64,000 nucleotides of DNA, from contig JARDVH010000115.1 of the NCBI GenBank assembly GCA_030324005.1, forward strand, positions 33,389,478 to 33,453,477, in the 5' to 3' direction. Made by a program: the position numbers and the translations under genes. Source of the DNA: Negaprion brevirostris (taxonomy: Eukaryota). The first letter of the stretch is position 1; every line of letters begins with the position of its first letter. Shown here in pieces: positions 1 to 64,000 of the stretch. The notes below the pieces were generated by a model. That model was not told where the DNA came from, searched no databases, and was given only the letters and a program-made list of their open reading frames with translations.

Positions 1-232
1 GCAGGTAGTATTGAGGAAGCAGGGGGCTGCAGAAGGGCTTGGACAGGTTAGGAGAGTGGGCAAAGAAGTGGCAGATGGAATACAATTTGGAAAAGTATGA
101 GGTTGTGCACTTTGAAAGGAGGAATGGGGGTGTAGACTATTTTCTAAATGGGAAAATGCTTAGGAAAGCAGAAACACAAAGGAACTTGAGAGTCACTGTT
201 CAGGATTCTCTTAAGTTAAACATGCAGGTTCA
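1..232 (+). mobile_element. CR1-like LINE ORF2 (RT C-terminal) fragment
   Basis: DRLGEWAKKWQMEYN.EK.EV.HF is a typical CR1 RT motif; a similar copy lies at 43896-43989. Confidence 0.85.
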
Positions 233-21970: not shown

Positions 21971-22063
21971 TCTGGTTTTAGTTTTGTTAGAAACAAGAGA
22001 CTGCCTAACCTTTGATACTAATTCTCAGTTGAATGGTTATGTAGCAAAAATATTAAAATAAGA

Positions 22064-39430: not shown

Positions 39431-39760
39431 AGCACAGTGTTTAACACTGCTGCCTCACAGCACCAGGGATCGATTCCAGCCTTGGCTGACTGTCTGTCTG
39501 CACATTCTACTAGCGTCTGCATGGGTTTCCTCTGGGTTCTCTGGTTTCCTCCCGCAGTCCAAAGATGAGCAGGTTAGGTGGATTGGCCATGCTAACTTGC
39601 CCCTTAAATGACCCAAGAAGTATAGGTTAGGGGGAATTAGCTGGGTAAATACATGGGGTTACGGAGATAGGGCCTGGGTAAGATGCTCTGTCGGAGAGTT
39701 GGTACAGATTCAATGGGCCAAATGGCCTCCTTCTGCACTGCAGAGATTCTGTGATTCTAT
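39431..39760 (+). mobile_element. V-SINE, tail A
   Basis: V-core and gattctgtgattctat tail. Confidence 0.85.
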
Positions 39761-40649
39761 CAATTTAAATTCTGTTGGCTAAAAACGGCACCTGATATTT
39801 CACGAACATCTGACATAACCACATAAAAATGGTCAGTCACTAGATTTTACAGCATAAGCAAACTGCTGCAGAGAATGCAAATCCCAAAGATGCATTTTAA
39901 CACCCTCTCCAACACTCGGAGCTACGTCCCTTTATATTTCAAANNNNNNNNNNNNNNNNNNNNNNNNNNNNNNNNNNNNNNNNNNNNNNNNNNNNNNNNN
40001 NNNNNNNNNNNNNNNNNNNNNNNNNNNNNNNNNNNNNNNNNNNNNNNNNNNNNNNNNNNNNNNNNNNNNNNNNNNNNNNNNNNNNNNNNNNNNNNNNNNN
40101 NNNNNNNNNNNNAGGAAATGAATGGCCTCCAGATGGTACCCTGTCACATGGATGTAATACTGCACTCTAGCCACTCTGTGGCACAGCACGTTAGAACATC
40201 AATGCACTCCATCAATGCCATCGCGCAAATATTAAAACGTAACTTCATATTGACTAACGGTTTGATTATTTTTTAAAAATAAGTGCGATGAGTTTAGACG
40301 GTCTCAAATTAGGTCCCAGCAATTTCACAGCTTTGTGGTAAAGGGTCAGAATCCCCAGGCCCAAGTACAAGAAGCAGTTTCAGGCTTTTTAAACGCTGCT
40401 GTTAGGGCGGTCTGTAATTATTAATACAGTACTATTCAGCAACAAAAAGATTTGTCATTACAGGAAGAGAGTTAATTCTCGAGGGCACCTTCATTCACAA
40501 GCAGCGCAGTCGATACACTATTCCTTCAATCACAGCCAGATGTCCCACCACTACTTTAATGTCGTGAGTCAACTGTAAAAATGAAGAATGTGCATGAACA
40601 GCAGTTATTCCTTGGAAGCAATTCCTCTACTGAACCTACTCATTCTTAG

Positions 40650-40658
40650 GTGTGTGTG

Positions 40659-40720
<62 letters not shown>
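40650..40720. repeat. (TG)n microsatellite
   Basis: Direct inspection. Confidence 0.95.
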
Positions 40721-40722
<2 letters not shown>

Positions 40723-42779
40723 TGAGTGAAGCACCCCAGACATTCTCTCTTCCACCTTCTTCCGTCGGGAAAAGATACAAAAGTCTGAAAACATGCGCCA
40801 ATCAACTCAAAAACAGCTTCTTCCCTGTTGTCATCAGACTTTTGAATGAACCGACCTTGAACTATGTTGATCTTGCTCTACACCCTGGTTATGACTGTAA
40901 CATTCTGCACTCTCTCCTTTTCTTCCCTATGAACGGTATGCTTTGCCTTTATGGCACACCAGAAACAATATTTTTCACTGTATACTAGTCATAAATTAAA
41001 TCCAAATACTGACAAGAAGCGTATTTATTATTTATCCCTCTCAGACCTGAGATGATGATGGGTCTTCATACAACTGAGTTGCTTGCTAGGCCATGTCTGA
41101 GGGCAATGAAACGTCAGCCATGTTAGTGTGAAACTGGAGTCATTGACAAGCCAGACAGGGTGAGGACAGCAGATTTCCTTTCTTAATAAGGGCACGAGTG
41201 GCCTCTGGGCTTTTATTGACCATCCAACTGATTTCTGGTCATTTTTGTTGATATCAACTTTTTAAAATCAGTAAATCCGTCGAAAAAAAGCAGAATTAAA
41301 ATCCTCAAACCGCACTGCAGATTTGACCTTGCATTTAATGTAATACAAGTTCTGCACCACCATAACACCATTATTTAGAGGATGTACCAAGGGAAGGCAA
41401 GGCATTTCCTCTAGGGAAAGCTGTATGGATATGGAGCAGTCTGGCAGCAGGTGGATTGGCCACGCTATATTGTCCCTTGGTGTCCCAAGGGATGAAAGCT
41501 CGGGGGATTAGCAGGGCAAATACATAGAGTTATGAGGTGGGGTAGGGCCTGGGTGGAATGCTCTGTTGGAAAGTCAATGCAAACTTGATGGACCGAATGA
41601 CCTCTGCCTGCACTGTAGGGACTCCAGGTGTTTCCCCTGCACAAATTCCAAAAGCTGGCACTGGCATTGGTTTGGGAACTGTTAGAAACACCTCCTCAGT
41701 TGGTTTAGTCAATGATGTAATGAAAAGATAAGTTATTGCAACTTACTGATGGGGATGAAGGTAGACATAGAAAGATATGACTTGCATTTATACAGCAGCT
41801 TCATGACTAGAGGATGGCCCAGCACGCTTGACAGACAAGTATGTTTTTGGGGGACTGTAGTCACTATTGTAACACACTAGTCATGGGCAGGGAAGAGAAA
41901 GTAATTGAAAATGTGGACAGAAAGTAAGTGTGCACACAAAAACACACTGATGGGAAACCAAAGAAATTAAAACATCAAGAAATATATATCGATTGGAAAC
42001 TAGAAACATCACTTGACTCTATGTTTGCGCAATTTATTTTTCATGTTGTTCAGATATTGATTTTTCAAATGCGTAGTTAATAATGCAGCTAAGGACTGGG
42101 AAATTCTGCAATGCTGCTCAGAATAAATATAGCAATTAGAAGGTTATTTTTCTTAGAGATTGGGCAATGTTTTTAAAGACATAATCCTGTGTCAAATGAC
42201 AAATTTATAACCACTGCTTATTAATTTGATTTAATTAAGATCATACATCAAGTGCTTCAGTCTACAAAGATACATCGGAAATAATTTCCAGGATAAAGGC
42301 AAAAAATGCAGGAAGTGAACAAGTTATTCATCATCTGTACAGAGAAACGACAAGTTTACAGGAGCATAATAACTCAGTTTCTAAGTTTGATCTTTCAAAC
42401 TGATACGGACCAAGAATAGGGTGAAAATTCAACAAGGTTTTTCAGTTTTTGAAGTGTAATCCAATCACTGATGTAATGAAAAAATAAGTTATCACAACTT
42501 ACTGATAGGGATGGAAATAGATATAGAAAGATATGACTTGCATTTATACAGCAGCTTCATGACTAGAGGGTGGCCCAGCACGCTTAACAGCCAATTAAGT
42601 ATGGTTTTGAACTGTAGTCACTGTTATAACACAGTAGTCATTTTTTGCACAGCAAGGTCACGCAAGTAATAAACGTATTCGTGACCGGAAAACCTGTTCT
42701 ATTTTAACCATTAAGTAATCGGTCTTCCTCAAAACAGAGCCATGGGATATTTTATGTCCATCCGAGAAACAGGATATAT

Positions 42780-43410
42780 CCATTGCCCCTTGAGATTCAA
42801 TGGAATTACCATCACTGAATACCCCACTATTAACACCCTGGACGTTACCAGTAACCAGAAACTGACTGGACCAGCCATGTAAATACTGTGGTGATAAGAG
42901 CAGGGCAGAGACATGGAGTTCTGCGGCAAGTAACTCACCTCTGACTCTCCAAAGCCTGTCCACCATCTACAAGGCACAAGTCAGGAGTGAGATGGAATGC
43001 TCTTTACTTGCTTCATTGAGTGCAGCTCTAAGAATACATGATGCTCAATACCATCCGAGGACTTGACAAGACCCCATCCTTTACCTTCGATGTCCACTCC
43101 CTCCGCCACTGGTGCACAGTGGCAGCAGTGTGTACCATCTACAAAATGTGCTAGAGCTACTTGCCAAGTGTCCTTCGACAACGCCTTCCAAACCTGTACC
43201 TCATCCACTTGAAGGACAAAGGCAGCATATGCATGGAAACAGCAAATGCATGGAAACAGCATAAGACGCAAGCTGCCCTCTAAGTCACAGACTAGCCTGA
43301 CTTTGAATCATACTGCTGTTTCTTCAGTGTCACTGGGTATCCTTTTCTAACAGCACCCTGGGAGTACCTAGGCCACATGGACTGCAATGGTACAAGAAGC
43401 CACCCCGCCA
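42780..43410 (+). mobile_element. CR1/L2-group LINE 3' portion
   Basis: ccaaagcctgtccaccatctacaaggcacaagtcaggagtg; reverse complement of the 430-965 family. Confidence 0.8.
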
Positions 43411-45019
43411 CCAAATAGGGGTGTGTAACAAATGCGAACAAAGAATGATAAACAATGGACAGAGCCTCAGCTTAATATCTCGATCTATTAACAGCACCAC
43501 CAAAATGGGCAGCACCCAAAATGGGACATAAAAGGGCCTTCAATAACTCCAGGAATGTTTTGCTTGTCTTAGTAGTGGAAAGATTATGGTCAATTTTTGT
43601 TTAAGTGAAATCTCCAATTACAATAGCAGTCATCAACTCACCATATCACCCATATGTTTGTTATGTTCTCTCATCCCACAGTTCCAGATTAAGGAACTTT
43701 TTGGGAGCATGACCACGTTTAACCTGTCTTAATTAAGTAAACACATTTAACAATTAGGATTTAAAGTCCACATTGTGTAGATTTTTTTAAAAATTGTTCG
43801 TCCCACGTTTATTGTGTCGTTCACAGCTTTGCTTTCGGTCATGCACTATAGGAAATTACCTTCCTCATGATGACAGGATTTCAGTGTTTCCAAATTAAGA
43901 GAGTGGGCAAAGAAGTGGCAGATGGAATACAATGTGGAAAAGTGTGAGGTTATGCACTTTGGAAGGAGAAATGGAGGCATAGACTATTTNNNNNNNNNNN
44001 NNNNNNNNNNNNNNNNNNNNNNNNNNNNNNNNNNNNNNNNNNNNNNNNNNNNNNNNNNNNNNNNNNNNNNNNNNNNNNNNNNNNNNNNNNNNNNNNNNNN
44101 NNNNNNNNNNNNNNNNNNNNNNNNNNNNNNNNNNNNNNNNNNNNNNNNNNNNNNNNNNNNNNNNNNNNNNNNNNNNNNNNNNNNNNNNNNNNNNNNNNNN
44201 NNNNNNNNNNNNNNNNNNNNNNNNNNNNNNNNNNNNNNNNNNNNNNNNNNNNNNNNNNNNNNNNNNNNNNNNNNNNNNNNNNNNNNNNNNNNNNNNNNNN
44301 NNNNNNNNNNNNNNNNNNNNNNNNNNNNNNNNNNNNNNNNNNNNNNNNNNNNNNNNNNNNNNNNNNNNNNNNNNNNNNNNNNNNNNNNNNNNNNNNNNNN
44401 NNNNNNNNNNNNNNNNNNNNNNNNNNNNNNNNNNNNNNNNNNNNNNNNNNNNNNNNNNNNNNNNNNNNNNNNNNNNNNNNNNNNNNNNNNNNNNNNNNNN
44501 NNNNNNNNNNNNNNNNNNNNNNNNNNNNNNNNNNNNNNNNNNNNNNNNNNNNNNNNNNNNNNNNNNNNNNNNNNNNNNNNNNNNNNNNNNNNNNNNNNNN
44601 NNNNNNNNNNNNNNNNNNNNNNNNNNNNNNNNNNNNNNNNNNNNNNNNNNNNNNNNNNNNNNNNNNNNNNNNNNNNNNNNNNNNNNNNNNNNNNNNNNNN
44701 NNNNNNNNNNNNNNNNNNNNNNNNNNNNNNNNNNNNNNNNNNNNNNNNNNNNNNNNNNNNNNNNNNNNNNNNNNNNNNNNNNNNNNNNNNNNNNNNNNNN
44801 NNNNNNNNNNNNNNNNNNNNNNNNNNNNNNNNNNNNNNNNNNNNNNNNNNNNNNNNNNNNNNNNNNNNNNNNNNNNNNNNNNNNNNNNNNNNNNNNNNNN
44901 NNNNNNNNNNNNNNNNNNNCGAGGCCAACGGAGAATGCCAATCTGCGAGCCCCGCCCACCCCGATTCCAGGGCAGGCGTAAAATTCCAGCTTATGCGCAC
45001 ACATTTTATATACCATTTA

Positions 45020-45889
45020 TGTAACAAAGCCAAGACCTCAAGATATTTTTTATAAAACCTATATACCTATCCTCATGGCTAATTTATAAAATTTTAAAAC
45101 CGGACAAAGACTTTAAAAAAAAAGAGGAACTTTCTGGCAGTAACATAGAAGCTAAAACCTCGTCATCTCCAAGAGATGATAATAACCCTGTGAGCTGTAG
45201 AAACCAAATTCAAACGGAATTATACAAAGGCCAGATACATTACCTAAACCAGGCCTGGTCAGAGACTACTAGCCTGCTAGGACAAAGGACCACTTTTGAG
45301 ACATTAACACTCTAAAGAATCCCAAGAAAGGAATATACATTTCCATCTAGCAAGCAGCAGTTCAGGATGAGGGCCAAGTCCTGATGAATGCCTGACTCCC
45401 ATTGTCTACAAGACTATTTCCTGTCTACGTGCCTATTCCATCATGGAGACCATCACTTCCAGCAAAGTGAATTATCCAGTATCAGTCTTCAATCTGCTGA
45501 CCTCTAAGAAGCAATACACCATTGGACTTTGCTTCTACACTCTGGACTCATGTCGAACAATAATTCTTTATTCAGTGGTCTTTGCCCTTTGAATCTTTCT
45601 TTCTCTACCTTTGCCTGCCCCACTCCCCACCAAAGCTCTTTTATTGCAAGGGGAAGAATAGGCACTGCTGTGAGGGTGTGAACGAACTAACCCACTAAGT
45701 TTGCCGTGGGGTTACTAATAAAAATTGGACAACAACAAAATTGAGGGGTTGGGAAATGCACCACCGCCTATTTAAGTTGGGGGGCGGGGGGGGGGGGGAA
45801 TTAAAAATCAAAACATCCTTTTGTTTATGGACAGTTGATGAGAGGAGAAATTGAGGCTGTTTAAATTAAACCCCCTCCTGTCCGTAACA
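45020..45889. mobile_element. Possible solo LTR
   Basis: TGTAAC... start and ...ccgtaaCA end; no TSD is recognisable. Confidence 0.35.
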
Positions 45890-46109
45890 CACACACACAC
45901 ACATACACACATAAATGTATATTTTAATATATGCGCATATAAAATCACTACAGTCTTTTTCAAACAACGTCTAGTTATATATTCCATTGATCGTAATCAT
46001 TCCTATGAAAAGATAAGTATTTGAGGAGGAGAGGAAAAGGTGAAGAAACAAAGAATTAAAATCATATAAACATTACCCTGATGCTTTCCTCTAAAAACAG
46101 GGAGCAAGT

Positions 46110-46790
46110 GGATGCTACAAATGATCTAAACTACTTGCAAAGCATAGCCAAGCTTTACGGGAGGGTTTATCAGCTACATTCCAGCAGCTGCTGAGCCACC
46201 TGCAGCAGTCTGGAACCCTTCTTTCGCAGGAGATGGTGCCAGCATTGTGTGGCACCCAGGCCCACACTGAGAGGGTGGTGTCCACAACAGGGTGAAGGGG
46301 TGAAGACATCTAAGCCATGTCTGATGATCTCCAAGACTTGACTCACTCTCTGATGTTCTGGCTGCGGTCCAGGAGCAGGCCCCAGTCACACACGGACATG
46401 ACGCAAGCTTGGGTGAGCATTGTTATAACACTCCAGAGCTTGGCCCACTCACCGAGAATTGACAGCATGGTTCAGACAACAGTGGACCCCAGAGTGGCAT
46501 TGCCAGGTGATGTTTAGTCATCTGGAGCTCACTCCAGCTCCCCCTCCATCCCATGGAGTAACCCGGAGGCCAGTGAGCACCCAAGGGAGCAGGAGGCACT
46601 GGAACCCATCCTGGAACCTCCCACCAGGGCGACTCTGGCAGTCTGCAGCCCTTCTGATTCTCCCCCTCTTGACACTGGAGCATTTCCTGGGGAGTGGGCA
46701 GACCAGAGTGTCATGGCATCACCTGTGACGCCCAAAAGTCAGATGGGGCTCTCCAATTTCAGGCTCTGCAGAGGATACTCCTGTCCTATT
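46110..46790 (+). mobile_element. Degenerate coding relic, possibly the Harbinger accessory (Myb/SANT-type) ORF C-terminus
   Basis: GC-rich codon-like stretch (..REGLSATFQQLLSHLQQSGTLLSQEMVPALCGTQAHTERVVS..) with stops; assignment from recalled shark repeats only. Confidence 0.3.
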
Positions 46791-48802
46791 TCTTATGTTC
46801 TTATGCTTGCCAAGCACAGCACAGCCCACAGAGCACAGAAAGCAAAAGGCCACCTCCACTTCTGATATGCAATCTGGGGGCATGTCTCGTAGGAGTGGGA
46901 GTGAATGTGAGATCGGGAAGATGGAGGACCACTGAGTTAGCATGGTGCAGCCACACATCATTACACCTGGGCAGCATGGTGACACAGTAGCACTGTTGCC
47001 AGGGACCTGGGTTCAATTCCCGGCTTGGNNNNNNNNNNNNNNNNNNNNNNNNNNNNNNNNNNNNNNNNNNNNNNNNNNNNNNNNNNNNNNNNNNNNNNNN
47101 NNNNNNNNNNNNNNNNNNNNNNNNNNNNCTTTCTCAGAACAGGGCTGCTGGTGGAGTTTCCCACTGTGGAACATGGGGATGGGAAGAGTATTGCTAAATC
47201 TCCAGCTCAATTCACACTGCCTCTGGGCAGACATCTGCCTCCTGTTATCTGCAGAGCAGAAGCATCTGTGCGGTGGAAAAACGCACACTTTCCCTCACCT
47301 ATTCTCTGACAATAGAACTGCAGCTGTGGAGGGGAAAGGCAAAGATAGAGGGAAGAACCGATATAGAAAAACAAACTTCAGAAATTCCCTCCCCACAAAC
47401 GAAGGGGCACAAAAAGCAGACAGAGTTGCTGAAAAGTAATTCCGCCCATTTTATCTAGAACCAGTGCTAAAAAAATCTCCCTTCTCCTGGAAAACAACCT
47501 CATCAAGATTTGTGAAACCGGGTGCAAGCATTTAAATAAATTTCGAATTACAATTCATGTGCTAAACACATTTAAACATGAACATTTCCAAAACGAATCT
47601 GAGTACATAAGCAGGTACATTAAAATTTTAACTAGGGTAAATTTATTGCAAGTCTTTTGAATCCACACAATAAACACAAATCGGAATATTCACAGATTTG
47701 TCATGTGTGCTCACACGTGTAAAGACTCAAAATCCACTCACGTATTTAATAATATTACCTACTACCACTAGCCAAATAGAATCTTCCAAACCAAGAAACC
47801 GCTCGTTGTGGAACACTTTCAAACATCTTATGTTGTTAGCAAGGAGGAAATAAAACTGATGAAACTAGCTCATATTTTTAAAATATATTAGTAGAGAACA
47901 ACGTTAATACCCACACAAAACTGCTGTATTATCATTGGCGTGCCCTGTGTAATCTTATTCTGAGGCAAAAGAAAAAAAATTCATTAAAATATTGCCTGCA
48001 CTCTGGTGGAAATAACATTTATTGAGGCATCTGATGGGTGCAGTTTCAAAATTAAAATGGCAACACATCTATAAGCTGACTAAGAAAGGTAGCACTGGGT
48101 TATTAGTACCAAGGGACTGTATCATGACAACTAATACATGATGGAATGGAAAATTACCTCGGTGTCTTTGAAAAGTATGGCCCAACTATTCAATATTAAA
48201 CTTTTAATTTAAGGCCAGTCATAACAAGACAAGGTTTATGCACAACCTTCTCCATGTTTATTTGTTGCGAGGTGGGCAAATGAAATGAACAGCATGAAAT
48301 AACCGGATTTAAAATTTACAAGATTAGCTTATTCTCATCATTAAAATCCAGTGATTTGACAGCCAACTATTTGGGGAATCCATGTCAAGCTGCTGTCAGA
48401 TTTCCCCATAAAGCCCAATGCTATGCCCTTGCTTTGTCATTCACATTGGTGAGGTGTGGCTCTGGACAAAACTGGATATCCCAATGCAACAACAAACAAC
48501 AAAATGCTTCCCCATGCACAGAAAAAAATGTAACCAGTTGAGCAACTGACACCTTCCATGATAATTAAAATTGCATTCCACACAACTATCACAAGGACAA
48601 CATGCAAGGTCCAAATCTTTGAGCAAAACTGTCTGATAATTTAAAATCGCTTCAACTGATTAGACACATCAAAAATAATACCCTATCCTGGATTGTTAAA
48701 AAAGAGGCTAGTGTCATCCAGAAGGACAAGAGGATTTTCTTTAAGAGTAATTGAACTCCAGCTAAAACCATCTCATTTTCATTTTATTTTTAAATTTATG
48801 TC

Positions 48803-49401
48803 AGGGCANNNNNNNNNNNNNNNNNNNNNNNNNNNNNNNNNNNNNNNNNNNNNNNNNNNNNNNNNNNNNNNNNNNNNNNNNNNNNNNNNNNNNNNNNNNN
48901 NNNNNNNNNNNNNNNNNNNNNNNNNNNNNNNNNNNNNNNNNNNNNNNNNNNNNNNNNNNNNNNNNNNNNNNNNNNNNNNNNNNNNNNNNNNNNNNNNNNN
49001 NNNNNNNNNNNNNNNNNNNNNNNNNNNNNNNNNNNNNNNNNNNNNNNNTAGGGATGTGGGGGTAGGGCCTGGGTGGGATTGTGTTCAGTGCAGCCTCAAT
49101 GGGCCGACGGGCCTGTTTCTGCACTGTAGGGTTCTATGATTCTATAAGTATATTGTATTAACACTGAAATGAAGTTACAGTGAAAATCCCCTAGTCGCCA
49201 CACTCCAGCGCCTGTTCGAGTACAGAGGGAGAATTTAGCATGGTCAATGCATTTAGCCAGCACATGTTTCGGACTGTGGGAGGAAACTGGAGCACCCGGA
49301 GGAAACCCACGCAGACACAGGAAGAACGTGCAGACTCCGCACAGACATTGACCCCAGATCCCTGGCGCTGTGAGGCAGGAGTACTAATCACTGTGCCTAC
49401 C
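48803..49401. mobile_element. Tail-to-tail V-SINE pair: tail A copy (+, gap-spanning, to 49146) and tail B copy (-, 49155-49401)
   Basis: Recognisable tails and core on either side of about 49150. Confidence 0.8.
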
Positions 49402-51569
49402 TGAACATAAAGACTCAATGCTAATTGGGAAATAGGCCACATTAGAAAAAAGATACAGTAATAGCAACTCTCACTTATTGACATGGCAAAATCTATCACT
49501 TGGAGCTCTGAAACAAATGTTTTTAAGCTACCACAGCAGATGCCTAACACTTCTGTTCCATCGTTGTCATTTTTTATCATGACACCCCAAGAAGGACTTC
49601 ATTTTGGGATAGCCGACATTGCAATAAGGTTCAAGTACGTCAACTACTCAGAAACAATACATTCTTTAATTAAAGTTACAATGCAATATTCGTATCTTTA
49701 GAAGGTAAGGAAAGAATGGAATGAAATATGCAGCAAAATGCATTGTTTTACTGTGTACAACTCTAGGCATAGTTTAGTTATCAGACATGTTTCTTTATTC
49801 ATTTTGTTTTCAAACCTGTCAGGTTTTAGCCCTGTTAAAAAATAAACTTCTTCCTCAGGAATACTCCAGGAAGGCTAGAACATGCTGATCGTGTGCCATA
49901 CCTGGTTCCTGATTTTAAAAAAATCCCTTTCTAGTCCCTCGTAACGACAATCACATCATGAACGGTTAAAGAAATAAGTAAATCAAGATAAACTGGAAGG
50001 CACACCAAAAGATGGGAAGAGAGAGAATGTTACAATTTCCAGAGAGACCATTAACTTCAAACCAAAAGGACGGCATGACAAAATTCTGAATTTTACGTCT
50101 TTTACTGTCACGGGCTAAAAGCACTATTGACTAAATACTATTTTTGTAGACATCTTATACTTTAAGCTACGGAATAAAAAGGTTCCCTTTTTACTGATAA
50201 TGCAACTACAAAACCCACATCGCAGATATACATTACATTGACCTTTAAGTAACAATTCAGTTTTCCAGGAACCAGTCCAAAGTGATTCTCTAGTGCAAGA
50301 GTTTACTTACATTCAAGGTACAAAAGTCTGAGGACACATACCAACCAACTCAAGAACAGCTTCTTCCCCGCTGCCATCAGACTTTTGAACGGACCTACCT
50401 CACATTAAGTTGATCTTTCTTTACACTCTAGTTATGACTGTAACACTACATCCTGCATTCTCTTGTTTTCTTCTCTATGAACGGTATGTTTTGCCTGTAT
50501 AGCGTGCAAGAAATAATGCTTTTCACTGTATACTAATACATGTGACAATAATAAATCAAATCAAATTACATTCCTTGCCTTTCCCAGTCTGATAACATAA
50601 GAACATAAGAAATAGGAGCAGGAGTAGGCCATCTAGCCCTTCGAGCCTGCCCCGCTATTCAATAAGATCNNNNNNNNNNNNNNNNNNNNNNNNNNNNNNN
50701 NNNNNNNNNNNNNNNNNNNNNNNNNNNNNNNNNNNNNNNNNNNNNNNNNNNNNNNNNNNNNNNNNNNNNGTAGGCCAGACCGGGTAAGGATGGCAGATTT
50801 GCTTCCCTAAAGGACATTCGTAAACTAGTTGGGTTTTTTTTTTTGACAATGGCTTCACAGTCATGAGTAGATTCTTAATTCCAGATATTTTGTATTGAAT
50901 TCAAATTCCACCATCTGCCGTGATGGATTCAAACCCAGATCCCCAGAGCATTAGCTGACATTCTAGATTCGTAATCTAGCAATAAAACCACTGGGCCATC
51001 GCTTCCCTTTACTTTCTGCCGGACTCTCAGAGCTGGAGTTTTACAACAGGATTGGGTGTATTTGAATCACATCAGTGACTGGAGTGTCTGCTGGAAGTAT
51101 AAAGGACAGGAAGGAAAGAGTGAGCTTAGCCCTGGCTCGCACCCAGGCCTGGGAAATGGTTCAGAGCTGGCCTGCTTTGCTGTCATTTTTTTCTTGGCTA
51201 CAGCTTTAGATAGTCACCGGGCCTTCTAAATAGAGCATGTGCCAAAATCCCAGGCGATAAGCTGCCAGGTGAATAATATTCAATCTGCTTCTCATTTGCC
51301 AAGCAGCCTGGCAGAACCTGATCAAATCGCTCAGCAAAAATGAACTGGGTTTTGGTGCAAAATGTGACAAAGAATCATAGAATCTTCACAGAAAAAGGCC
51401 ATTCGATCCTTTGTGCCTCTGCCAGCCCTCTGAAAAAGTCCCAGTCTCTTCCCTTTGATTTGATTTGTTATTGTCACATCTACTGGGACACAGTGAACAA
51501 TATTGTTTCTTGCTGCTATACAGATAAAGCATACCATTCATAGCGAAGGAAAGTAGAGAGTGCAGAAAT

Positions 51570-51847
51570 TTTATTTATTTATTAGTCACAAGTAAGGCTT
51601 ACATTAATACTGCAATGAAGTTACTGTGAAATTCCCCTAGTCGCCACAGTCCGGCACCTGTTCGGTCAATGCACCTAACCAGCACGTCTTTCAGAATGTG
51701 GGAGAAAACCGAAGCACCCAGAGGAAACCCACGCAGACACGGAGAACATACAAACTCCACACAGACAGTGGCCCAAGCCAGGTGTTGAACCCGGTTCCTT
51801 GGCACTGTGAAGCAGTAATGCTAACCACTGTGCTACCATGCTGCCCC
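51570..51847 (-). mobile_element. V-SINE, full length, tail B
   Basis: Head ggggcagcatggtagcacagtgg, B-box GGGTTCAACACC and (aataa)n tail. Confidence 0.9.
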
Positions 51848-51856
51848 AAGTATTAT

Positions 51857-51921
51857 CGCCCAACGTGGGGCACGACCCTGGGATTAAGAGTCCCATGCTC
51901 TACTGATTGAGCTAGCTGGGT
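51857..51921 (-). pseudogene. tRNA-Lys(CTT) pseudogene lacking the T-loop
   Basis: acccagctagctcaatcagtagagcatgggactCTTaatcccagggtcgtg[del GGTTCGAG]ccccacgttgggcg versus canonical vertebrate tRNA-Lys-CTT; no CCA. Confidence 0.9.
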
Positions 51922-54244
51922 CACATAATACCTCCCATTAGAATTAAAAGCCCTCACCAAAGTGATGAGTTTTCAAAACCTCTACCCAAAATGTAACTTG
52001 TAATATTTTACACATTTGAACAACTGGCTTATTAGGTACAGTGCAAGTAACATTCTCAACCCAGTGTGTCGCGTTTGCCTATTAAGGAGCCCATTTTGGG
52101 AGCATGACCATGTTTAACCTGTCTAAATTAACTAAATACATGTAACAATTAGGATTTAAAAGTCCACATTGTGTAGATTTTTTAAAAGTTGTTCCTCCCA
52201 CATTTAAGAGTTTGTTTTGCTGCTCATGGCTTTGCTTTTGATCATGCACTACAGCAAATTATCTTTCTCAATGATGACCAAATTTTAATGCTTCCATATT
52301 CTTGGTTAAACAATTGTATCCTTGGTTGGGTTGGTTAACCTCATCAAGAACAACATGGCTCACTTCTAATAGTCCCTCTGAGTGAGCCTTTCAATACCAT
52401 CAAGTAGACCCAGAAGAATTTCTCTATCATAATGCTTTTTGAGTTCAGCATTTCCTCTGGTTCCTCTATGAAGCAGATCTTACATTGTNNNNNNNNNNTT
52501 GACTTTTTAACCATAGTCTCTGGATCATTCTTCTCTTCCAGGGCTTTGGTTCTTTAACATTCACATTTAATAAACATCTCAGCTGCCAACCTCTCATCAT
52601 TTTTCTCCCACTTAAACTCAGCATTACAGTTCTCCTTCACTGTTTTAAGAACCTTGTTGTGGTCACATCAATGTTCTGATAAAGATTCTGGCATTCATCT
52701 TGAATCAGCGCTTTCATTCTTACATTCTCTTCCATGGGCTTTGTCAAATTTCTTCTGAGCAAGAGCTACGGTTTCAACACTTTGAAGTTTTATTTCCCAC
52801 TCCGAAACTGTATTACAATCTCGTAACTCCACAGTATTATCTCCAACCAGGTCCTTGTGTTTTAAAGTACTGTCTCTCTTTGTTTTTCTCTCTCAGCCTC
52901 CCCATTCCACCCAATCTGCAGGCAGGCTAGCCACAGATGGGTTCTGTTCATTTGCAGTTAGTTGCAACTCTTTGTTGTCAGCCTTGAGGTTTCAAGGTCT
53001 CTTTAATCTCCAAAGTTTGAGTTCTGGTCACATCTTTAGTCAAAACGGTACTTACTGCGGCAGGATTATTCATAATCCCTGATTACTTCAGTATACTGTC
53101 AGTTTCAATGGACGTGCCTGCCATCCTGGGAGATGGCAACATTTTATCTCCCGCGAGGTCATGTCCTTGTATGAAATCGACATTATTTTGATTTCGACAT
53201 CACTCCAACAGTAACAGACCCATTGACGAAAGCAGTTTAAATTCACTCTGCACAATGGAACAGGTAAACAATTTCTATCAATACACTGCATCAGTACACT
53301 TTAAGTGAACATCTTGAAAAGAAATTCACATCTTTTGTCAGCATCAGGGATTGAGACAACCTTTGCACCTCATAGAGCAACCATGTTTTTGGACAATAAG
53401 TTATTTCACCCTCAAATGTAAATTCCCATTATCTTTTATGTTTCAATTCACTCCCACAGTATATCCATTAGATGTATTGATTTGTTCCAAGCTTCATTCA
53501 CCGGTACATCATTTTCTGGAGAAACCCGTCGACTTTTCCACAAAAGCTACCAATTCAGCTTACAACCTCTGTTTTCACAGACCCTGTCTAATGGCAAAAG
53601 CAACATGCTTGATTCTTGGAATCATATTTATCTCCCCTGTTATCTCTTTCACTACCCTGAGAAGCATTTGCCTTTTCATTTCTGCTATCCCCCTCATACA
53701 AATTAGTGTCTTGTTCATCATCAGATCAGTTCTCTCTCCAGTTTTCAGGTGGCTTTGCAAACAGATGTTGGCTGCTTCTTGTGCGATTGTGGAATAATTC
53801 GTAACCAGAGGCCATAATATCAGCATCTCTTATTTTAGAAATGTTACCACCTTCTAGTTGCGACCTAATACTTTTTAAAAAATTCCTCTGTTAATAGCGC
53901 CTCTCTAAGGTTTTCCAAACCTTGATCAAACTTCATCACCCCATACTAACTATTAAGCACCGTTTTCCCCCATAAATTCCAGAGAAGTCTGATTCTGTCT
54001 CTTCCTCAGGTTTCTAAACTTTAGTCTGTAAGCTTCAGCTACTAATTCATACACATTAAGCATGGTAGTCTCAATGACATCAAAATTAGCAGAACATTTA
54101 TCTGAAAATGTCAAATAAACCTTCAAATGTTTCCTTACCAAAACATTCGATAATAAAATCATCCAAGTCTTTTTTGGATTTGGTGACATTTTAACAAATG
54201 TGACAAAACATCTTGACCCCTTGCTCACTGAATTCAGGCACCAG

Positions 54245-54980
54245 TGTGATGTTAGCATACCTTTAAGAGGTGTTTTTTTTTAAATCATGATCTCTGCAGC
54301 TCTCACAGTCTGTGTGTCTCATGCTCACAGACTTAGGTGATGCCATTGTTGGGAGGCGAAAAACCTGTGTGCAAGTCAGGTGACAAGGATTGATTTTCAG
54401 TTTCAGTTTGAAGCTGCAAGTTAGAGCTGGGTTTTAGAAGGGACAGCAAGCTAAAGTAAGTATTTTCCCTCTCTCCCCATTGTTTTGAATGTTCTGTTGG
54501 TTTCCTGAAGCGTGAAATCTGCCATTCTTGGGGGCTGGACCAGAGTCTCTCTGGTGCTTTGGAAAGCTGTCTTGTCTTCAAACTGTTCTGAGTCTCAACA
54601 GCATTGGACTGCAGAGTTCAATTAATGGCCACGATCCCAGTACCAAATGAGAATTAGTCTGTGCTGTGTTAAACCTGTAAAAAGGGTTTTTTTGGTCTAA
54701 CTGAGATTTTGGTTTTGACTGGGACAGCTTATATTCATTAAGGGTTACATGTTAGCGTGGATGTTTTGTTTTTGTTTGTAATTGATAGAAGTTTTTGCTA
54801 ATTTTCTTACTATACATGTTAACTATATTCTTACATAAACTTTGATTGATAAAAACTCCTAGTGGGTCATTTGAATCTTACATGAAGTGAAATATCTCAT
54901 GCTTATCCCAGCCAAATTCAAAACTTATGATTCAGACAGGTTCATGAAACACTTTGGAGTTTCTAAATTGAACCATAACA
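54245..54980. mobile_element. Solo LTR inserted into the Gypsy gag
   Basis: TGTGATG...CATAACA termini; 4-bp TSD CCAG/CTAG (1 mismatch); gag-like sequence continues on both sides. Confidence 0.75.
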
Positions 54981-56464
54981 CTAGCCAAATCCAAACCAGG
55001 AGTTAAATCTGACCCATTGTCAAGTTTCCCCTCATAGTCCCTATTCATATCATTGAATTCTTTTGAAGTCTGGGTCAAATTTTCACTTTTTTATTGCAAT
55101 TTAGGCATTCATTTTCTTTTATTCTCTGAAACACCTTTTTTCTTCCCTTAAAGTCTAATTCAACCTTTTACATTTTCCTTCCTTCTCTTTCCAGCTTAAG
55201 TTTTTTTTAAATTTCTCTTTCCATTTCATATGGCTTCAGTCGTAATTGAATAACTCAAAATGCATTTTACCTGGAGTCCCTTCTTCTTCCTCAAGGTTCG
55301 AATGTTGAGCCAAAACACTTCAACTATCTTGGCATTTTTAGCACCTACTTTTAAATCTAACTCTAGCTTTTCTGCTATTGCCTTCAGGCTAACCTTTGTT
55401 AACTGTTGCAAGACACGTTCCTCTTTCAAGGAACGCTTCAGCAATAGCCATAGCCATTTTAACTTTTCAATACAGCAAAAATCATTGTGAAAATGTGTTT
55501 GTTTAACATCTGGCCAAACCCAGCATATCAATTTGTTACAATCCCTACAGATATCAACAACTTTAAAAAATAAGTTCACATTTCCAGTCGACAGCTGAAA
55601 GGATGACACAAGATTTCACCTTTTGAAGACTTTTACTATAACAAGCTAAAAGCACTACTGACTAAACACTATTTTTGTGGTCAACTTATACTTTAAACAA
55701 TGGCAAAATTTTCCAGCAGTTTCTGCTGGCGGGACCTTCCAGTAGCATTGACAGCGATGCTGCACTGCAAGTTTCTCGTCTGCAGAGAGTGTGAACAATG
55801 GGCGGGGGGNNNNNNNNNNAAAACAAAAAACTTTCTCTTTTCACTTCTAACAAAAAACCCACATCATGGTATACTTAACGCCATCACTAGAGCAAATAAT
55901 TTTGATTTTCCCAGACTCAAGATGAAGCAGCACCAGGCAACGAGCCAAGGATCTGCCTTTGTACGAAGCACACGTGAATGAATTGCTATTTACAAAAATT
56001 ATGAAAAGAACTTGCTTTGTTCGACATATACCATGTTTAATTGGTAAGGCAGGGGAAACCTAATAGTGAAAATAATTCCTGTTTATCTAAAGGGTTTCTG
56101 CATACAACTTTTCCAGAGAAGCTCCAATACATCAGGAATTGGTGCTGTTACGGCTGCAGAGATACTTGTGTAGGTTGGTGTCGGAAGTATCTTCAATTAA
56201 TCCATTCACTGAATGAGCACTTCAAGAATTTATACTATATTGGAGAACATACAAAAAACAAAAACCTTTCACAAAAAAGTGCTATATAAACATAAAATTT
56301 CCAATCTCCAGCAGCAGAGGATTGAGTTGTGAGAAATGATTAGGAAGATTTGGCCTTGTGCTATTTCAAGGTAAACCAGAACAGCGTTGGACTTGTATCG
56401 ATCTTGTGACCAATTGCCTGACAGACCAACAGACATTGGTTAGATTAACAACAGATCAGGTATC

Positions 56465-56810
56465 AGAGCAGCATTTAAATGTCATGACTTCACCACATAA
56501 TCTAGGCTGACATTTCAATGCCATACCAAGTGATTGTTGCACTATCAGAGGTCCCACTCTTTAAGATGAGACTTTAAACTGACACACGTCCTTTTTTGTT
56601 TAGGTAACAAAGAAGATTTCATGGAATTCACCTGATGTGCTAACCAATATTCACCCCTGAACAACCACTACCAAAACAGAAAAAATATTCATTTACCACT
56701 TGCTATGCACGCTTTGATGTTACACTTAAAAATAAATCATGAAGATGTTTTGGGATATCTCCAAGGATGACAAAGGCACTTTACTACTTCAAGCTCTTTG
56801 TTTCTTCCTT
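56465..56810 (+). mobile_element. Deu-domain SINE, degenerate
   Basis: ataatctaggctgac..gatgagactttaaactga..ccaatattcacccct..aaaggcact. Confidence 0.6.
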
Positions 56811-57194
56811 CCCCAGGAGCCAAGAAAACACTTAAGTGCTGGACAAGTCTTTCTTTATACGCCTACCAAAATAGCTTCCACATAATAAGACTCCAATAAC
56901 TGTGAATGACTTGCTTCACCGGATGAAGAATAACAGCTGATATGGATTTTCATCACACTCAGCAAAATAGAAAGTTATTTCCACATTCCTCTGTCTACAG
57001 CAGGTTTCTTCAGAAATCGACCACACATCCTTTCAACATATTTTTCTCACAAACACAAGTCTTTATGGGGTTTCTTCAACTGGTTTGGCTTCCTGTAAAG
57101 TACAAGTTGGCCATACAACTCTCTTTTGACTGAGCTTTGCTGAAATGTCAGATATCAGCTTTAATATGGGGCCTAATCTTCTTTATCACATTTT

Positions 57195-57364
57195 AAGATG
57201 TGGAAATGCCGGCATTGGACTGGGGTGGGCACAGTAAAAAGTATCACAACACCAGGTTAAAATCCAACAGATTTATTTGGAATCACGAGCTTTTGGAGCA
57301 CTGCCCCTTCATCACCTAATGAAGGAGCATTGTTCCGAAAGCTTGTGATTCCAAAATAAACCTG
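57195..57364. mobile_element. Penelope-derived palindromic element (two inverted, degenerate hammerhead cores)
   Basis: tttatttggaatcacgagc..cttcatca / ctaatgaaggagc..gttccgaaagcttgtgattccaaaataaa inverted arms. Confidence 0.75.
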
Positions 57365-57659
57365 CATCTCATTTTAAATCACTGGATCAATAGTAATTGA
57401 ATATTTACTGTTGAATCAGTAGCCATAACCACTGTTGTACCTATCCTAAAACTACATTTAGACTAAAGTTAAAGACTATCATACTCAAAATCACAGGGAC
57501 TTCGGGTGAAACAATGCAGATTTTACGAAGGGACAAAAGCCTCTTCAAAGATTCCCCCAGCATTAAAACAGAATGCAAGAGAAGCAAATAGTTCCGGCAG
57601 TTTGCAAAATTTAAGTTGCATTAAATGCTCCGATTTATTTTCATTTTCTTCATTCCACT

Positions 57660-57956
57660 TCACAATTAACTAGATCATAGATACTATGATCAGGACTAGA
57701 GGACACAGCCTCAAGATAAGGGGGGGGGGGGGGACAGTTTAGATCGGCGTTGAGGAGGAACTTCTTCACTCTGGAATTCTCTGCCGGTTGAAGGGGGGGT
57801 GNNNNNNNNNNNNNNNNNNNNNNNNNNNNNNNNNNNNNNNNNNNNNNNNNNNNNNNNNNNNNNNNNNNNNNNNNNNNNNNNNNNNNNNNNNNNNNNNNNN
57901 NGCAGGCTCGAAAGGCTAGATGGCCTACTCCTGCTCCTATTTCTTATGTTCTTATA
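57660..57956 (+). mobile_element. CR1 LINE 3' end
   Basis: actagaggacacagcctcaagataagg..gaggaggaacttcttcact..; tail ctcctatttcttatgttcttat. Confidence 0.8.
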
Positions 57957-59034
57957 CAACAGTGGCAATAATGAAATGGCACATAATGACAAAAAAAATA
58001 CATTTATGATGAAGTAGATCATATACACAAACAACATACACAAATATTGAAATCATTTTGAGAAAGGTTAGTTTTCAAAATTATAGAATTTCTGCGCAAA
58101 ATCCAATATGGCAGGAGGTTGACAAAACCTAATAAGTTGACATGAAATATTACCTGAAGTTATAACCGTTAAAAGCAATAAATGTGCAATGCTTAAACTG
58201 TTTCCTTTCAACAGATTGGGTGGGATTTTCTGGCCACGATCACCCCAAAAATCTCGCCTGAGGTCAATGGACCTTTGCATTGTCCATGTCCCGCCTGCTA
58301 CGATTCCCGTGGCAAGTGGGACGGGAGGATTCCGGGAATCATGTTGAAATCCAGTTGATTTTAAAGACACAAAGGAACAGTAAAGTACATTTAAAGCAAA
58401 CTCCTGGATATTATAAACATAAATACTACAGTTACATCTGCATTGATTTCAATCTTCTAGTAAGTGTGCAGTGGTACTGTAGAAGCTCAACAACACAGCA
58501 GTGTTTCAGGCGGCACTGAATAATACAGGAGCGATTTTACAAGTTAAGCATAAGCTGCAGATGGCTACAACAAAATGAAGTCTCTTTATTCTTGCATCTC
58601 CTCTCTCTATAAAGTGCAAAAACCAACAGGTGCTGCATTTAATCAAAAATCACTGGTGGCTGTATTGTGCTCTTGGAACATTTGCAAGGAACAAGAGGAA
58701 ATACCTTTCAAGGGGATATTAACATACAAAAAGATATAAATAGACCAGCTTAACTGTACCAGCCAAATCAACACATTATACGCATTGGACAGAGATTGGG
58801 TAGTCTGCAACAACTGGCTCCCAAAGCCTCTTCACTACATACAAGGCTCAAGTCAGGTGTGTAATAACATACTCGCAGACAGCAGCAAATTAAGTATAAA
58901 ATAACTCTCCATGTACGTACAAAAGTTGTTGAGAGGTGAATCTTGATCCAATATTACACTGTCAACGACACTGTGCATTGACATTACACAGCTGGGAGCA
59001 TTCAAGCGAAATCCCATGTGGGTAGATGACCACC

Positions 59035-59246
59035 ATCAGTTTAGCTCAGTCAGCTGGGCAGCTGGTTAGTAATTCAGAGCAATGTCAACAATGCGGGTTC
59101 AATCCCTGTGTTGGTTAAAGTTATTCATGAAGGCCCTGCCTTCCCAACCTTGTCCTTCACAAGGGTAAATTCACCACTAGTCAGCTACCCTTCTCCAAGA
59201 GGACAGCAGCCTATAGTCATCTGGAACTATGATGACTTTACCTTTA
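59035..59246 (+). mobile_element. Further tRNA-SINE family (tttac-repeat tail)
   Basis: A-box TAGCTCAGTCAG, B-box GGGTTCAATCCC and tail gactttaccttta. Confidence 0.7.
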
Positions 59247-59255
59247 GATTCATTT

Positions 59256-59291
59256 CACCTGAAGAAGAGGGAAACCCCTCGAAAGCTAGTG
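59256..59291 (+). ncRNA. Minimal type I hammerhead ribozyme motif within a Penelope-like remnant (59250-59352)
   Basis: cac-CTGAAGA-a-GAGGG-aaac-CCCTC-GAA-AGCT-A-gtg: intact core, 5-bp stem II, palindromic AGCT stem III and 3-bp stem I. Confidence 0.7.
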
Positions 59292-60449
59292 CGTTTACTA
59301 TCAAATAAATCGGTTGGACTAAAACCTGGTGTTGTCAGACTTTTTACTGTGTTTACCTTTAGATGCCAGGGAGAAGGATCAATCTATACAATTTGTGCTA
59401 CACAATTCAGGAAGTTTCATCAAGCTTTTAGCAGCTGTTACTATCAAATGCTTCAGCTTTACCCTAAAATATAGCAGAATTTGCATTTAGCATAATAACC
59501 TGATGATTCATCCCATTCTCAACACGTTAACATCAATGAAAAGTTTGGAACGAGATGCTTCTGGATCATGTTATACTGTCTTTAAAGTTGTAATTTATTC
59601 ATTTTTAACTTCAGGTGGGACTTTAATGAATAATATCAGTTCCTTTTACTATTTCTTCCCAAAGCATTAGTGCATAGAAGTTGTATTCTCAAGTGACGTG
59701 AATGTGATGAGGTGGTCAATGCGGCAACAAAATCAAATGACAATGCTGCTGGTTAGGAGATAGTTTGATGAAAGCTACATGAAGTGTAATGCATTTCTAC
59801 TAATGTTGGGTGTAACCCCATGGAACAACTGCATACAAAAGTTGTCCAGGGGTGGATCTTGATGCAGTACTACTTCCATTTCATCATTAGCATTTATTCT
59901 ATAAGTCACAGAACTTACGCTCTGCAGAGGCTTTATATTGTCATGTTAAATCACTCTGGGACCACAACAGCTGTCTCGTGGTTTACTTACATATTGGATC
60001 TTGGCAGAGCAGAAATAGAGGTGGGACAGGGATGACAGACTGATCACAGCAACAGCACATTGATGCAGCACCGTGCACATGACTACCTAACCTTAGACAT
60101 GAAAGTGCACATGAAGGAAAGGAGTGACAACTAGACCGGCATTAATCAATAACTTTAAGCAATCTGTATCGGGGAGGTACATGGGATCAAACTAATTTGA
60201 ATGCATCATAACAAGTTAATTGATAGACCTTTTGTAAATGTTAAATTTTCAATGGTACTTCCAAACATTGCATAATAGTGGTCATCTAAATCCCTGCAAT
60301 TATCTTTGCACTTCCTTTTGTGCATGTTCTATCAAATATAGTCATGCACCAAACTTTGGAAGATACCATCTTACCGAGTTTATACCTTAAAATACGACGG
60401 TAGCAAGTTCAGGATCACAAAGAGTATAGAATAATCAACTCACTGCCCA

Positions 60450-60960
60450 CCCATTCCAATTTTTGGGTGGCCCTTGATTTAGATGGCTGAGCACCTGACG
60501 AATATCAAGGACACATAACATTCTCAAACTGCCAATGCTCAACTTGTCCCCGCTCAAGTCACTATCAATGATTCTTGATCCTGCTTTAATCCACAAATCA
60601 TGGGTGGTGCCAATGGGAAAGCAGCCCATTTCCACCATTTTCATTATTTCCCCCATGGACAACTGGGGAGGGCTCTAGGATACACAAACATTGCCAGTTT
60701 CTTCCAGGTTCATGGCATCACTGACTGTACGTTACCTTTGGGCCCCTTCAGACTGCCTTCGTTTTTTTTGTATCCATAACTCATTTCAAGCACTGCCACT
60801 CCATTCATCTGCAAACAGTGCATGATAACAAAAATGCAGCATGGTGGTCTGTGCCCATTCTCCTGGCATAGCAGCTGCTATGACATTTTATATTGTAGTA
60901 ATCCTGCATTTCACCTCACCCTACCTCCCTTGCACAGCAGGTGAAGGGTTGGTTGTTTTG
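60450..60960 (+). pseudogene. Harbinger/PIF (HARBI1-like) DDE transposase relic
   Basis: RALGYTNIASFFQVHGITDCT resembles IAGFPQVQGAIDCTH; HSIHLQTVHD..VCAHSPG resembles HSINVQ.VCD..VCA.YPGS.HD; frameshifted. Confidence 0.7.
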
Positions 60961-61330
60961 AGAGCACAGCTTTCTCCTGCACTCTTAAGTAATTGCTCCT
61001 TTCAGGAACTCACATTCAAATTGCACTAAAATCAAATCCATGGGTCAACTAAAGGCTTTGTAGTGCAGACAACTGAAGTCCTTCAGCAAGAATTACAGTA
61101 CAAGTTCTGGTGGCTCCATTGTTCCTCAGTGTGGCACGACTTGTTTTGCAACTGGAATAACATGTGAAGACACCACTGGAGGAGGGCCTTCAACTTGCTG
61201 ATGGAAAGGGTATTGATGGACAAGAATGGTTAAGTAATAAAGGATTCTAACGCCACTTGCAGCCAGACTTTATCATAGGATGTTTCTGCTAACTCCTCCC
61301 ATGTTAATTATTGTCCAACATTTTCTATGC

Positions 61331-61620
61331 AGAATCCCTACAATGCAGGAAGAGGTTATTGAGCCTGCACTAACAACAATCCCACCTAGGCCCTATCCCC
61401 ACATATTTACCCTGCTGGTCCCCCGACACTAGGGGGAAACTGTCATGGCCAATTAACCTAACCTGCACATCTTTGGAGCGTGGGGGAAAATCGGAGCACC
61501 CAGAGGAAACTCACACAGACACAGAGAGAATGTGCAAACTCCACACAGACAGTAAACCCAGGCTGGAATCAAACCCAGGTGCCTGGCGCTGTGAGGCAGC
61601 AGTGCTAACCACTGTGCTAC
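61331..61620 (-). mobile_element. V-SINE, tail A
   Basis: Head, V-core and tail present. Confidence 0.85.
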
Positions 61621-62159
61621 TCATTATCTGGGTGCAGTATGGGCACTTGGTCACCTTAATATTGCAACATAGTACAAAAACACTGAATACAAGCTGTACT
61701 ACGAAGCACAAGCTGGATCTTCAGTGCAGCTGAAATCTGGAAGGACCATGCTAAAGTTTGTGTCATTCCCAGTTAAGAAGGATCACACATGTGATGGCCT
61801 TTCTAACCAAACAGCTGGTACTCTCTGCCTAACCTCATACATAAAGAATGTAACTTAAGCAAAGTATCAGAAGGTCATTAATATGCCTGTGGAATTATGT
61901 ACAGCTGATGTACTACTGAAACATATTGATCTTTCCATTTGTTCTCTACTAAAAACATCACAAACATTATATTAGAGGGGGGAGAAATGGTTCAGTTTTA
62001 GCCGCTCCCTACCAATGTTCACAGAACCAGACCGGGTGCAGAGGCAGTCGGCATGAAACAAATATTCTCAAAAAAGATAGAAATTAAATTTAAATCGGTG
62101 TTACGGATCAAGAGGCAAATCAGTCCCCTCAAATCCACCGGATAAATAAATGATTCAAT

Positions 62160-62720
62160 GGGCTGGATTTTACATGCACACAGCAGGCGAATGGAAAATA
62201 TTGTGATGATGATGTCAGGTTGGCCACATAACGCCACCATGTCAATCTCCAAAATCACACAAGGCCAGGTGGTCAGAAATCAGCAGCCATTTTGAGCGCG
62301 CTGCTCAATAAGTGTATCAGGTTTGGTAATGACCCTCCTGTCTGAAATTTTCCTGCTGCACTTCTCGGGCTTGAGCTGTGAAAATGTTTAGGCGTGTTTT
62401 GCAGCAGCTACCTGACAAGGTGGAAATAAAGGCTCATCAACTGAACCATGGTGGAATGGAGCTGCAGACTCTGCTGGTGAAGATGGCAGTGTCTGCATGG
62501 TTTTTTTTTATACAACTCATTACTGTGCTTTATTGGGCTTTTGATAAAAAACGAAATAGGTCTGGCTGGTTGACTTCCTGTTTGCGGTATTACCACTCTG
62601 CTGCATGACTTCCCAGTCTACAGTTCCCATTGGATACGGGACCCCCACTTTGCACATCAATTTGGTCGCCTTCCACCAGTTAGCTGTTCAACACTTGATA
62701 CGACAAGCTGAGATGGTGGG
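62160..62720 (+). mobile_element. Possible second Harbinger remnant (TIR-like gggctggatttt plus degenerate transposase-like sequence)
   Basis: Terminus similar to other GC-rich elements; weak LLVKMAV..FF similarity. Confidence 0.3.
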
Positions 62721-63057
62721 GAGGTGGGACAAGCATGTTATTCAGTATTTATTGCTCCTCCCTCAAACTGTCAAAAAACATTGGGTTGAATTTTAGGGAA
62801 TTGGTCCTCTCTCTTCGAAAAGAGTCGCCAAACAGGTTGCCACAAGTCTTCAGGAGATCCATACAGATACATTTCACACATGGATACAACTTCTAATTTT
62901 TCCGAAAAAGGTCTTATGGTCCCTATAATCATTCCTTCGAACAAAGAATAAAACATGAAGCTTGAATTATATTTAGGCAGGGTAAATAAAGAATAAACAC
63001 AAGAACTAAACTCAAACTGAGAAACATTAAACGGATGTTTTATCATTTAACTCCATT

Positions 63058-63203
63058 CAAGACATGCTGGTTAGATGGACTGGCCATACTAAATTCTCCC
63101 TCAGTATGTCTGAACAGGCAGAGTGCGGCGACTAGGGGATTTTCACAGTAACTTTATTGCAGTGTTAATGTAAGCCTACTTGTGACACTAATAAATAAAC
63201 TTC
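63058..63203 (+). mobile_element. 5'-truncated V-SINE, tail B
   Basis: gcgactaggggattttcacagtaac..gtgacactaataaataaac. Confidence 0.8.
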
Positions 63204-64000
63204 AAACATGGAATTGGGATTGTTCTGCTGAAAATTAAATGTCCATAAAGTAAAAGGATGGTAAATTTAGAAAAAATATAAAAATGAATAAAAACTCAAA
63301 TGCGACAAACTGCAAGTACTACTACTGCCAGCTGGAAACCAAATGAAATCTAATGCCGTCTCGCTAATATAGATTGCCTAATATCACAAGCTGTTACTTT
63401 AAAGCAAGCATCTGGGAACATGCAATAATGCACCTACTAAGCTCTAACCAGAAGAAAAGTTAATTCATCTTTATTTGCCAACTGCTGCATTTCTGTTAAT
63501 GCACCAAGTTGATGTATTGCCAATGCCACACCCTTTCCCCATTAACAGAATAGATAGCCTTCAAACTTGTTACAGCTTTGTCAAACTGGAGATTTGTGTT
63601 ATGAAGATGTGGAAAAAAAATCCCCAAATGAGAGCCACTGTTTTTTTTTCCCCGCTGTATGCTAAATAAAGAACATGTGTTTACTGAGGACCTCTGTTTT
63701 GTTTGGCTATTGAGAGATTATAGGACTGCTTCTTTGTTGATTTTCTACGGTCACTCTCTGGATCCATTCTCTAACTTTGCCTCCAGCGTACAGCTGCGGA
63801 CTGTTCTGCTGTGCCTTGCATCTCAATGAACCTGCTCAGACTGCAGTCAGGAGTGCACCCCAATGGAGAGGTCAAGGCTGAGTCAGCAGACTGTCTGCAC
63901 TAGACTAGCGCTCCACAGCTTAGCAATGCTCCGCATCTTTCATTGCCCATATAAGGCAGCTCACCATTAAAACCACCTATTCACAATAAGGCAAATCCAC

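Follow-up and report, generated by a model that had tools for sequence, protein, structure and literature searches.

A slightly degraded minimal hammerhead motif in a Penelope-like stub inserted into an older SINE within an AKT1 intron of Negaprion brevirostris, a likely inert passenger

Introduction

Minimal hammerhead ribozymes (min-HHRs), a class described in 2014 in the pLTRs of metazoan Penelope-like elements, share, according to the text of Cervera and De la Pena (PMC4209133), a type-I core in which an additional nucleotide separates position 9 from 10.1, a G10.1-C11.1 pair and a palindrome at 15.2-16.2, with no real helix III. They occur mostly as solo dispersed copies, in families whose stem II covaries; as monomers they were reported not to cleave, and as dimers to cleave at a low level. 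How such elements copy themselves is described for the anole Poseidon element PAc (Frangieh et al. 2024, PMC11167929), whose ribozyme, in the account given there, cleaves only with the element's protein, while uncleaved RNA is the main insertion template. PAc inserts into AT-rich targets, and its reverse transcription begins without homology at two starts ~35 nt apart, giving a "tail". The Neptune and Nematis elements, as presented by Craig et al. 2021 (PMC8557442), carry a C-terminal GIY-YIG and a CX2-5CxxC linker, and are found as 5'-truncated and inverted copies with a 30-40 bp tail. Finally, the SINE-like hammerhead units of schistosomes and the non-LTR retrozymes, as outlined in PMC6765202 and bioRxiv 10.64898/2026.07.22.740005, place a promoter before a hammerhead and are amplified, often in tandem.

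The locus compared here with these systems lies in a 64,000-nucleotide stretch of DNA from Negaprion brevirostris (the window; contig JARDVH010000115.1). Its host is a cartilaginous fish, a group unnamed in the text of PMC4209133, although the supplements of that paper may list shark motifs; searching the literature by title and abstract revealed no shark-specific description.

Results

The core, on the + strand at 59256-59291, is a minimal type-I hammerhead with a predicted cut after 59288, in a CUA triplet (Table 1). It displays the conserved min-HHR nucleotides CUGANGA / GAAA / UH, the extra nucleotide between 9 and 10.1 with the G10.1-C11.1 pair, and a palindromic stub (AGCU) where helix III would stand. 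A sequence-only reading of this DNA had claimed a complete type-I core with an extra A, AGCU and CUA, and all of these residues were located. A strict hammerhead descriptor matched once in the window and in none of 300 resampled windows with dinucleotide frequencies preserved. The motif is genuine, beyond chance expectation. A loose pattern lacking stems gave 21 matches, compared with a mean of 28.6, which is the chance level. The Rfam hammerhead models, which the sequence-only reading had suggested as a check, left the core unmatched at E<=1.

Table 1. Features of the locus, in window coordinates
Feature	Position	Strand	Basis or remark
Part of the AKT1 intron separating coding exons 1 and 2	38495..64000	-	Continues to extended position 85558
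Old tRNA-derived SINE	59038..59247	+	Alignment with 23 other copies; boundaries approximate
13-bp target duplication, 5' copy	59237..59249	+	Sequence; includes SINE tail
5'-truncated Penelope-like end (pLTR stub)	59250..59357	+	96-99% identity to best genomic copies
Stem I, 5' strand	59256-59258	+	Sequence
CUGAAGA box	59259-59265	+	Sequence
Extra A between 9 and 10.1	59266	+	Sequence
Stem II, 5 bp, with 4-nt loop	59267-59280	+	Sequence
GAA	59281-59283	+	Sequence
AGCU palindrome replacing helix III	59284-59287	+	Sequence
A17	59288	+	Sequence
Stem I, 3' strand	59289-59291	+	Sequence
C in place of family A; stem I shortened from 6 to 3 bp	59292	+	A in 29/29 other loci compared
T5 run inside stub; putative first possible Pol III terminator	59341..59345	+	Sequence scan
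13-bp target duplication, 3' copy	59352..59364	+	Sequence

Among the listed sequence features of the class, the copy departs in one, the length of stem I. Its 3 bp fall short of the ~4-5 bp or more required of a min-HHR, and contrast with 4-5 bp in the schistosome motifs described in PMC4209133 and with 5-6 bp in 13 of 14 intact sister copies, a comparison in which the search anchor dictated the 3' strand of the sister stems. The earlier reader had missed the A>C change at 59292, to which the shortened stem is due. The 3-bp stem identifies a degraded copy rather than a separate family; the locus is an ordinary, slightly degraded member of the min-HHR class.

Five hammerhead cores were identified in the window, of which 59259 (+), 57316 (+) and 57315 (-) belong to one family and 12813 (+) and 22952 (+) to a second. 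The core at 59259 is the sole intact one, as had been claimed, since each of the other four carries core changes. The catalytic box of the nearest same-strand core, 57316 (1.9 kb upstream), is broken, and this core is engaged in a hairpin with its inverted twin. The pair at 57195-57369 comprises head-to-head inverted older stubs of the same Penelope-like family with both cores broken, and the long hairpin that it forms produces spurious miRNA-family matches in Rfam. The decayed + strand cores at 12813-12841 and 22952-22982 come from the second family, likewise a hammerhead-bearing repeat, whose downstream sequence is different. A second box-intact core was found in the same AKT1 intron beyond the window, at extended position 82968-82998 on the - strand, with a weak stem II (wobbles and a mismatch); as this is the AKT1 sense strand, that core is present in the pre-mRNA. 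Elsewhere in the window, long inverted SINE-like repeats at 21842-22187 give a spurious MIR869 match. A tRNA-like segment at 51857-51921 (-) scores 36.5 bits against an Rfam gathering score of 29 and was not called by ARAGORN, which found no tRNA; it is probably a pseudogene or a SINE head.

The core is borne by a pLTR stub whose first 4-5 nt are imperfect and whose last 6 nt are common to the target duplication. A 103-base stub query returned 3426 candidates genome-wide, the best of which are 96-99% identical. The exact 36-base core has 41 genomic copies (reversed control, 0), and the 32-mer starting at the cut site, just 3' of it, has 2776 exact genomic matches. Among the first 100 of these 2776 places, all of them on one contig, the core is intact in 14; another 5 combine an intact box with weak stems, in 40 the core is broken or missing, and 41 run into N gaps. 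By extrapolation from the 14 in 100, the subfamily set would hold ~390 or more intact cores, and it is likely that hundreds of intact minimal hammerheads of this family exist in the genome. The implication of the sequence-only reading that this copy is special is not borne out, since intact cores are common genome-wide.

In 63 family cores, which were chosen independently of stem II, the first pair of that stem is G-C 56 times, and the second is A-U 38 times and G-C 18 times. Given this covariation, the fold is maintained by selection in the parent element, where the motif probably acts as a dimer and/or with the aid of the element's protein. Covarying stem II families and mostly solo, dispersed copies are also features shared with the described min-HHRs.

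Upstream, longer relatives enter the closing part of a reading frame, in which a C-x4-C-x2-C motif precedes a GIY-YIG-like stretch. The GIY-YIG frame was seen in relatives L074/L127, L125 and L128, and the linker is present in L074, L118, L125 and L128; the nearest Atlas clusters (score 0.97) display PF01541 on 27-56% of members. A Penelope origin, as proposed earlier, agrees with the 3426 related candidates and with relatives that run into a GIY-YIG frame with a Neptune/Nematis-type linker. This linker, together with the GIY-YIG and the inverted, 5'-truncated copies with a tail, is shared with Neptune/Nematis; the linker differs from that of anole PAc as described in PMC11167929. It is the linker that points to the Neptune/Nematis clade, no RT domain or tree having been obtained. 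The family also presents the features of endonuclease-positive Penelope-like elements, namely target duplication, 5' truncation, an optional 30-40 bp tail and inverted partners. Pfam hmmscan of the endonuclease and upstream pieces gave no match, and a PDB sequence search returned nothing. The upstream walk yielded only short broken frames with no Pfam match, and no RT domain or intact full-length frame; the long upstream "open frames" examined were N gaps. The Pfam result and the lack of an RT domain and of an empty insertion site were counted against the Penelope reading.

A 13-bp duplication without mismatches brackets the stub; the earlier reader had overlooked it. Because this duplication contains the SINE's own tail, the stub must have inserted into a pre-existing SINE; the age of the SINE (78%) and the youth of the stub give the same order, SINE before stub. 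The adjacency of the two is a nested insertion. Target duplications measuring 11-15 bp (mode 13) accompany 29 of 100 family copies, with 13 bp in 11 of them; two of the 29 rows represent a single inverted insertion. Family 3' ends, counted from the cut, lie at +58..66 in 51 of 100 copies and at +94..99 in 21. The copy at 59250..59357 ends at +63, plus 6 nt common to the target, and so fits the family pattern of both duplications and ends. Two fixed ends recall the two reverse-transcription starts of anole PAc. At least 2 nt of 3'-junction microhomology with the target duplication was observed in 13 of 29 copies, compared with ~2 expected under a crude null, a count that the end-calling method may inflate; in this the family differs from anole PAc, for which PMC11167929 reports starts without homology.

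Approximately 6 of 100 family copies begin <=3 nt from the cut site (by eye, with 41 gap cases), and a pile-up of 5' ends at that site, looked for by eye in the 100 copies without a matched control, was absent. In many copies the start, or a changeover to inverted sequence, falls in the ~12 nt upstream of the cut, around the palindrome, where many N gaps also begin (100 copies, without a matched control). Since the stub itself spans the cut site, its template RNA was uncleaved or re-ligated, similar to the copies from uncleaved RNA reported for PAc. We propose that the element's endonuclease would have nicked the AT-rich SINE tail, a target like those of PAc, and that reverse transcription would have started at the family's proximal site, ~63 nt past the cut, possibly aided by the 6-nt microhomology. 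It would then have read through the uncleaved (or re-ligated) hammerhead and halted just beyond, and repair would have yielded the staggered 13-bp duplication.

The SINE, whose best other copy among 1919 candidates is 78% identical, is ~20% diverged, with a 17-nt internal deletion and a short tail. Its A and B boxes, assigned by their consensus, lie at 59042-59053 and 59096-59105. Within 59030-59420, four or more consecutive T occur only at 59341-59345, a run that begins 53 nt after the cut. With both boxes present and no T-run before the core, a ~310-nt Pol III transcript through the core is possible. The proposals that a tRNA-SINE with A/B boxes lies upstream and that its transcript could reach the core were therefore upheld.

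Among 46 rows, SINE and stub were spanned together at one place, this locus. The 29 other stub loci gave no SINE match, a stub comes after none of the 23 full-length relatives of the SINE (a separate set of 29 loci, less 6 partial ones, with no SINE-adjacent stub in any of these 29), and 154 stub loci included one partial SINE match, 200 nt off; these searches cover best-scoring samples rather than a census. In the sampled loci there is thus no amplified unit or tandem of the SINE-hammerhead composite or retrozyme kind. The order of promoter then hammerhead is as in the schistosome units, whereas those units and the retrozymes are amplified and often tandem, and the junction here is single and non-tandem. 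As a single instance, the chimera was not seen to spread.

Folding predictions assign stem I of the isolated core a probability of 0.35, compared with ~0.98 in four sister copies. The value falls to 0.015 when the SINE tail is included and to 0.001 in the 311-nt transcript from SINE to T5; there the CUGAAG box is predicted to be paired >95% of the time, the SINE tail being its predicted partner. Two of the four sister copies likewise lose stem I in their own flanks in these predictions. The predicted energy of trans-dimer helices I + III is -2.9 kcal/mol, as opposed to -10.9 kcal/mol in sisters. The core at 57316, broken and in a hairpin with its twin, would by dimer geometry be unable to cut at 59288. 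In this solo copy half of stem I is gone, and it lacks an intact neighbour.

AKT1 is encoded on the - strand, as identified by one exon 41/41 identical to RAC-alpha (PDB) with a weaker match to RAC-beta. The hammerhead is located within a 47-kb intron, with exon 2 at 38494 and coding exon 1 21.6 kb past the window end. The motif is therefore antisense to AKT1, as had been stated, and only the reverse complement of the motif is present in the AKT1 pre-mRNA.

Over 58700-59283, run X9 is identical to the window. Runs X10-X13, from another organism (one sample), display 7 differences plus gaps over 450 nt on the left and 8 over 470 nt on the right. One X11 contig bridges the SINE-stub junction, reaching 34 letters beyond it, which indicates that the insertion predates the split of the two organisms. 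An empty insertion site was looked for in runs X9-X13 and none was seen. In the related organism ~2 changes are deduced from contig counts for 59246-59283, compared with 2 in the preceding 126 nt (cumulative counts of 2 to 59245, 3 to 59270 and 4 to 59283; small numbers). The core region therefore has no fewer changes than its flanks, on these small numbers.

Discussion

The locus is very probably a ~100-base Penelope-like stub, carrying a hammerhead and flanked by a 13-bp duplication in the tail of an older SINE, that persists as a likely inert passenger, rarely transcribed and predicted not to cleave. Several observations were counted against the inert reading: the core has every nucleotide intact, the SINE retains its two boxes, no T-run precedes the core, the insertion persisted in two organisms, stem II covaries, and the folding is only a prediction. 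A host-exapted intronic ribozyme regulating AKT1 would draw on the position of the motif within an AKT1 intron, and is almost certainly wrong; the motif is on the wrong strand relative to the pre-mRNA, the repeat copy is young and, in one related organism, conservation shows no excess (small numbers).

The intact core also admits some low-level catalytic competence in a passing antisense transcript, through a trans partner or the element's protein and of no host consequence. Family transcripts are plausible partners, given that run X1, which is only presumed to be RNA, had repeat-matching contigs and no others; among its listed pieces none crosses a junction, which counts neither for nor against expression. 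Protein-assisted cleavage is known for the anole element (PMC11167929). Such competence is nevertheless very improbable, because the predicted trans-dimer energy is weak and so few copies begin at the cut that even the parent RNA appears to be mostly copied uncleaved. We consider very unlikely a chance-born SINE-hammerhead unit, in which Pol III would transcribe from the SINE through the core to T5, two such RNAs, or one and the transcript of a sister copy, would pair through AGCU, and a cut after 59288 would release a 3'-processed RNA antisense to AKT1 intron 1. The A and B boxes, the lack of T>=4 before the core with one run past the cut, the intact core and the junction kept in a second organism speak for it, as does the precedent of the schistosome promoter-plus-hammerhead units, as far as PMC6765202 describes them. 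It is opposed by the single instance in the sampled loci, the divergence and deletion of the SINE, the predicted pairing of the SINE tail with the catalytic box, the 3-bp stem I, and the broken, hairpinned state of the nearest same-strand core. The 3'-processing device envisaged by the sequence-only reading is not supported: the adjacency is a nested insertion with a single junction, stem I is degraded, the catalytic box is predicted to be paired and there is no intact same-strand partner nearby. The boldest version, a newborn SINE-ribozyme gene in which an old tRNA-SINE acquired its Pol III terminator and its hammerhead alike from the stub, so that a ~310-nt RNA antisense to AKT1 intron 1 would be cut in trans with itself or with hundreds of sister hammerheads, is highly improbable. 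If true, it would capture how schistosome-type SINE-hammerhead units or retrozymes come into being, and a SINE-driven cleaving RNA, if real, would be a first step toward a promoter-plus-ribozyme element.

Taken as the inert passenger that it very probably is, the copy has little importance as found, being one of likely hundreds of intact minimal hammerheads. Its family is of modest use to the specialist, for the 13-bp duplications, two fixed 3' ends, 3' microhomology and copies made from uncleaved RNA. These family statistics provide genomic support for the in vitro picture of Penelope copying.
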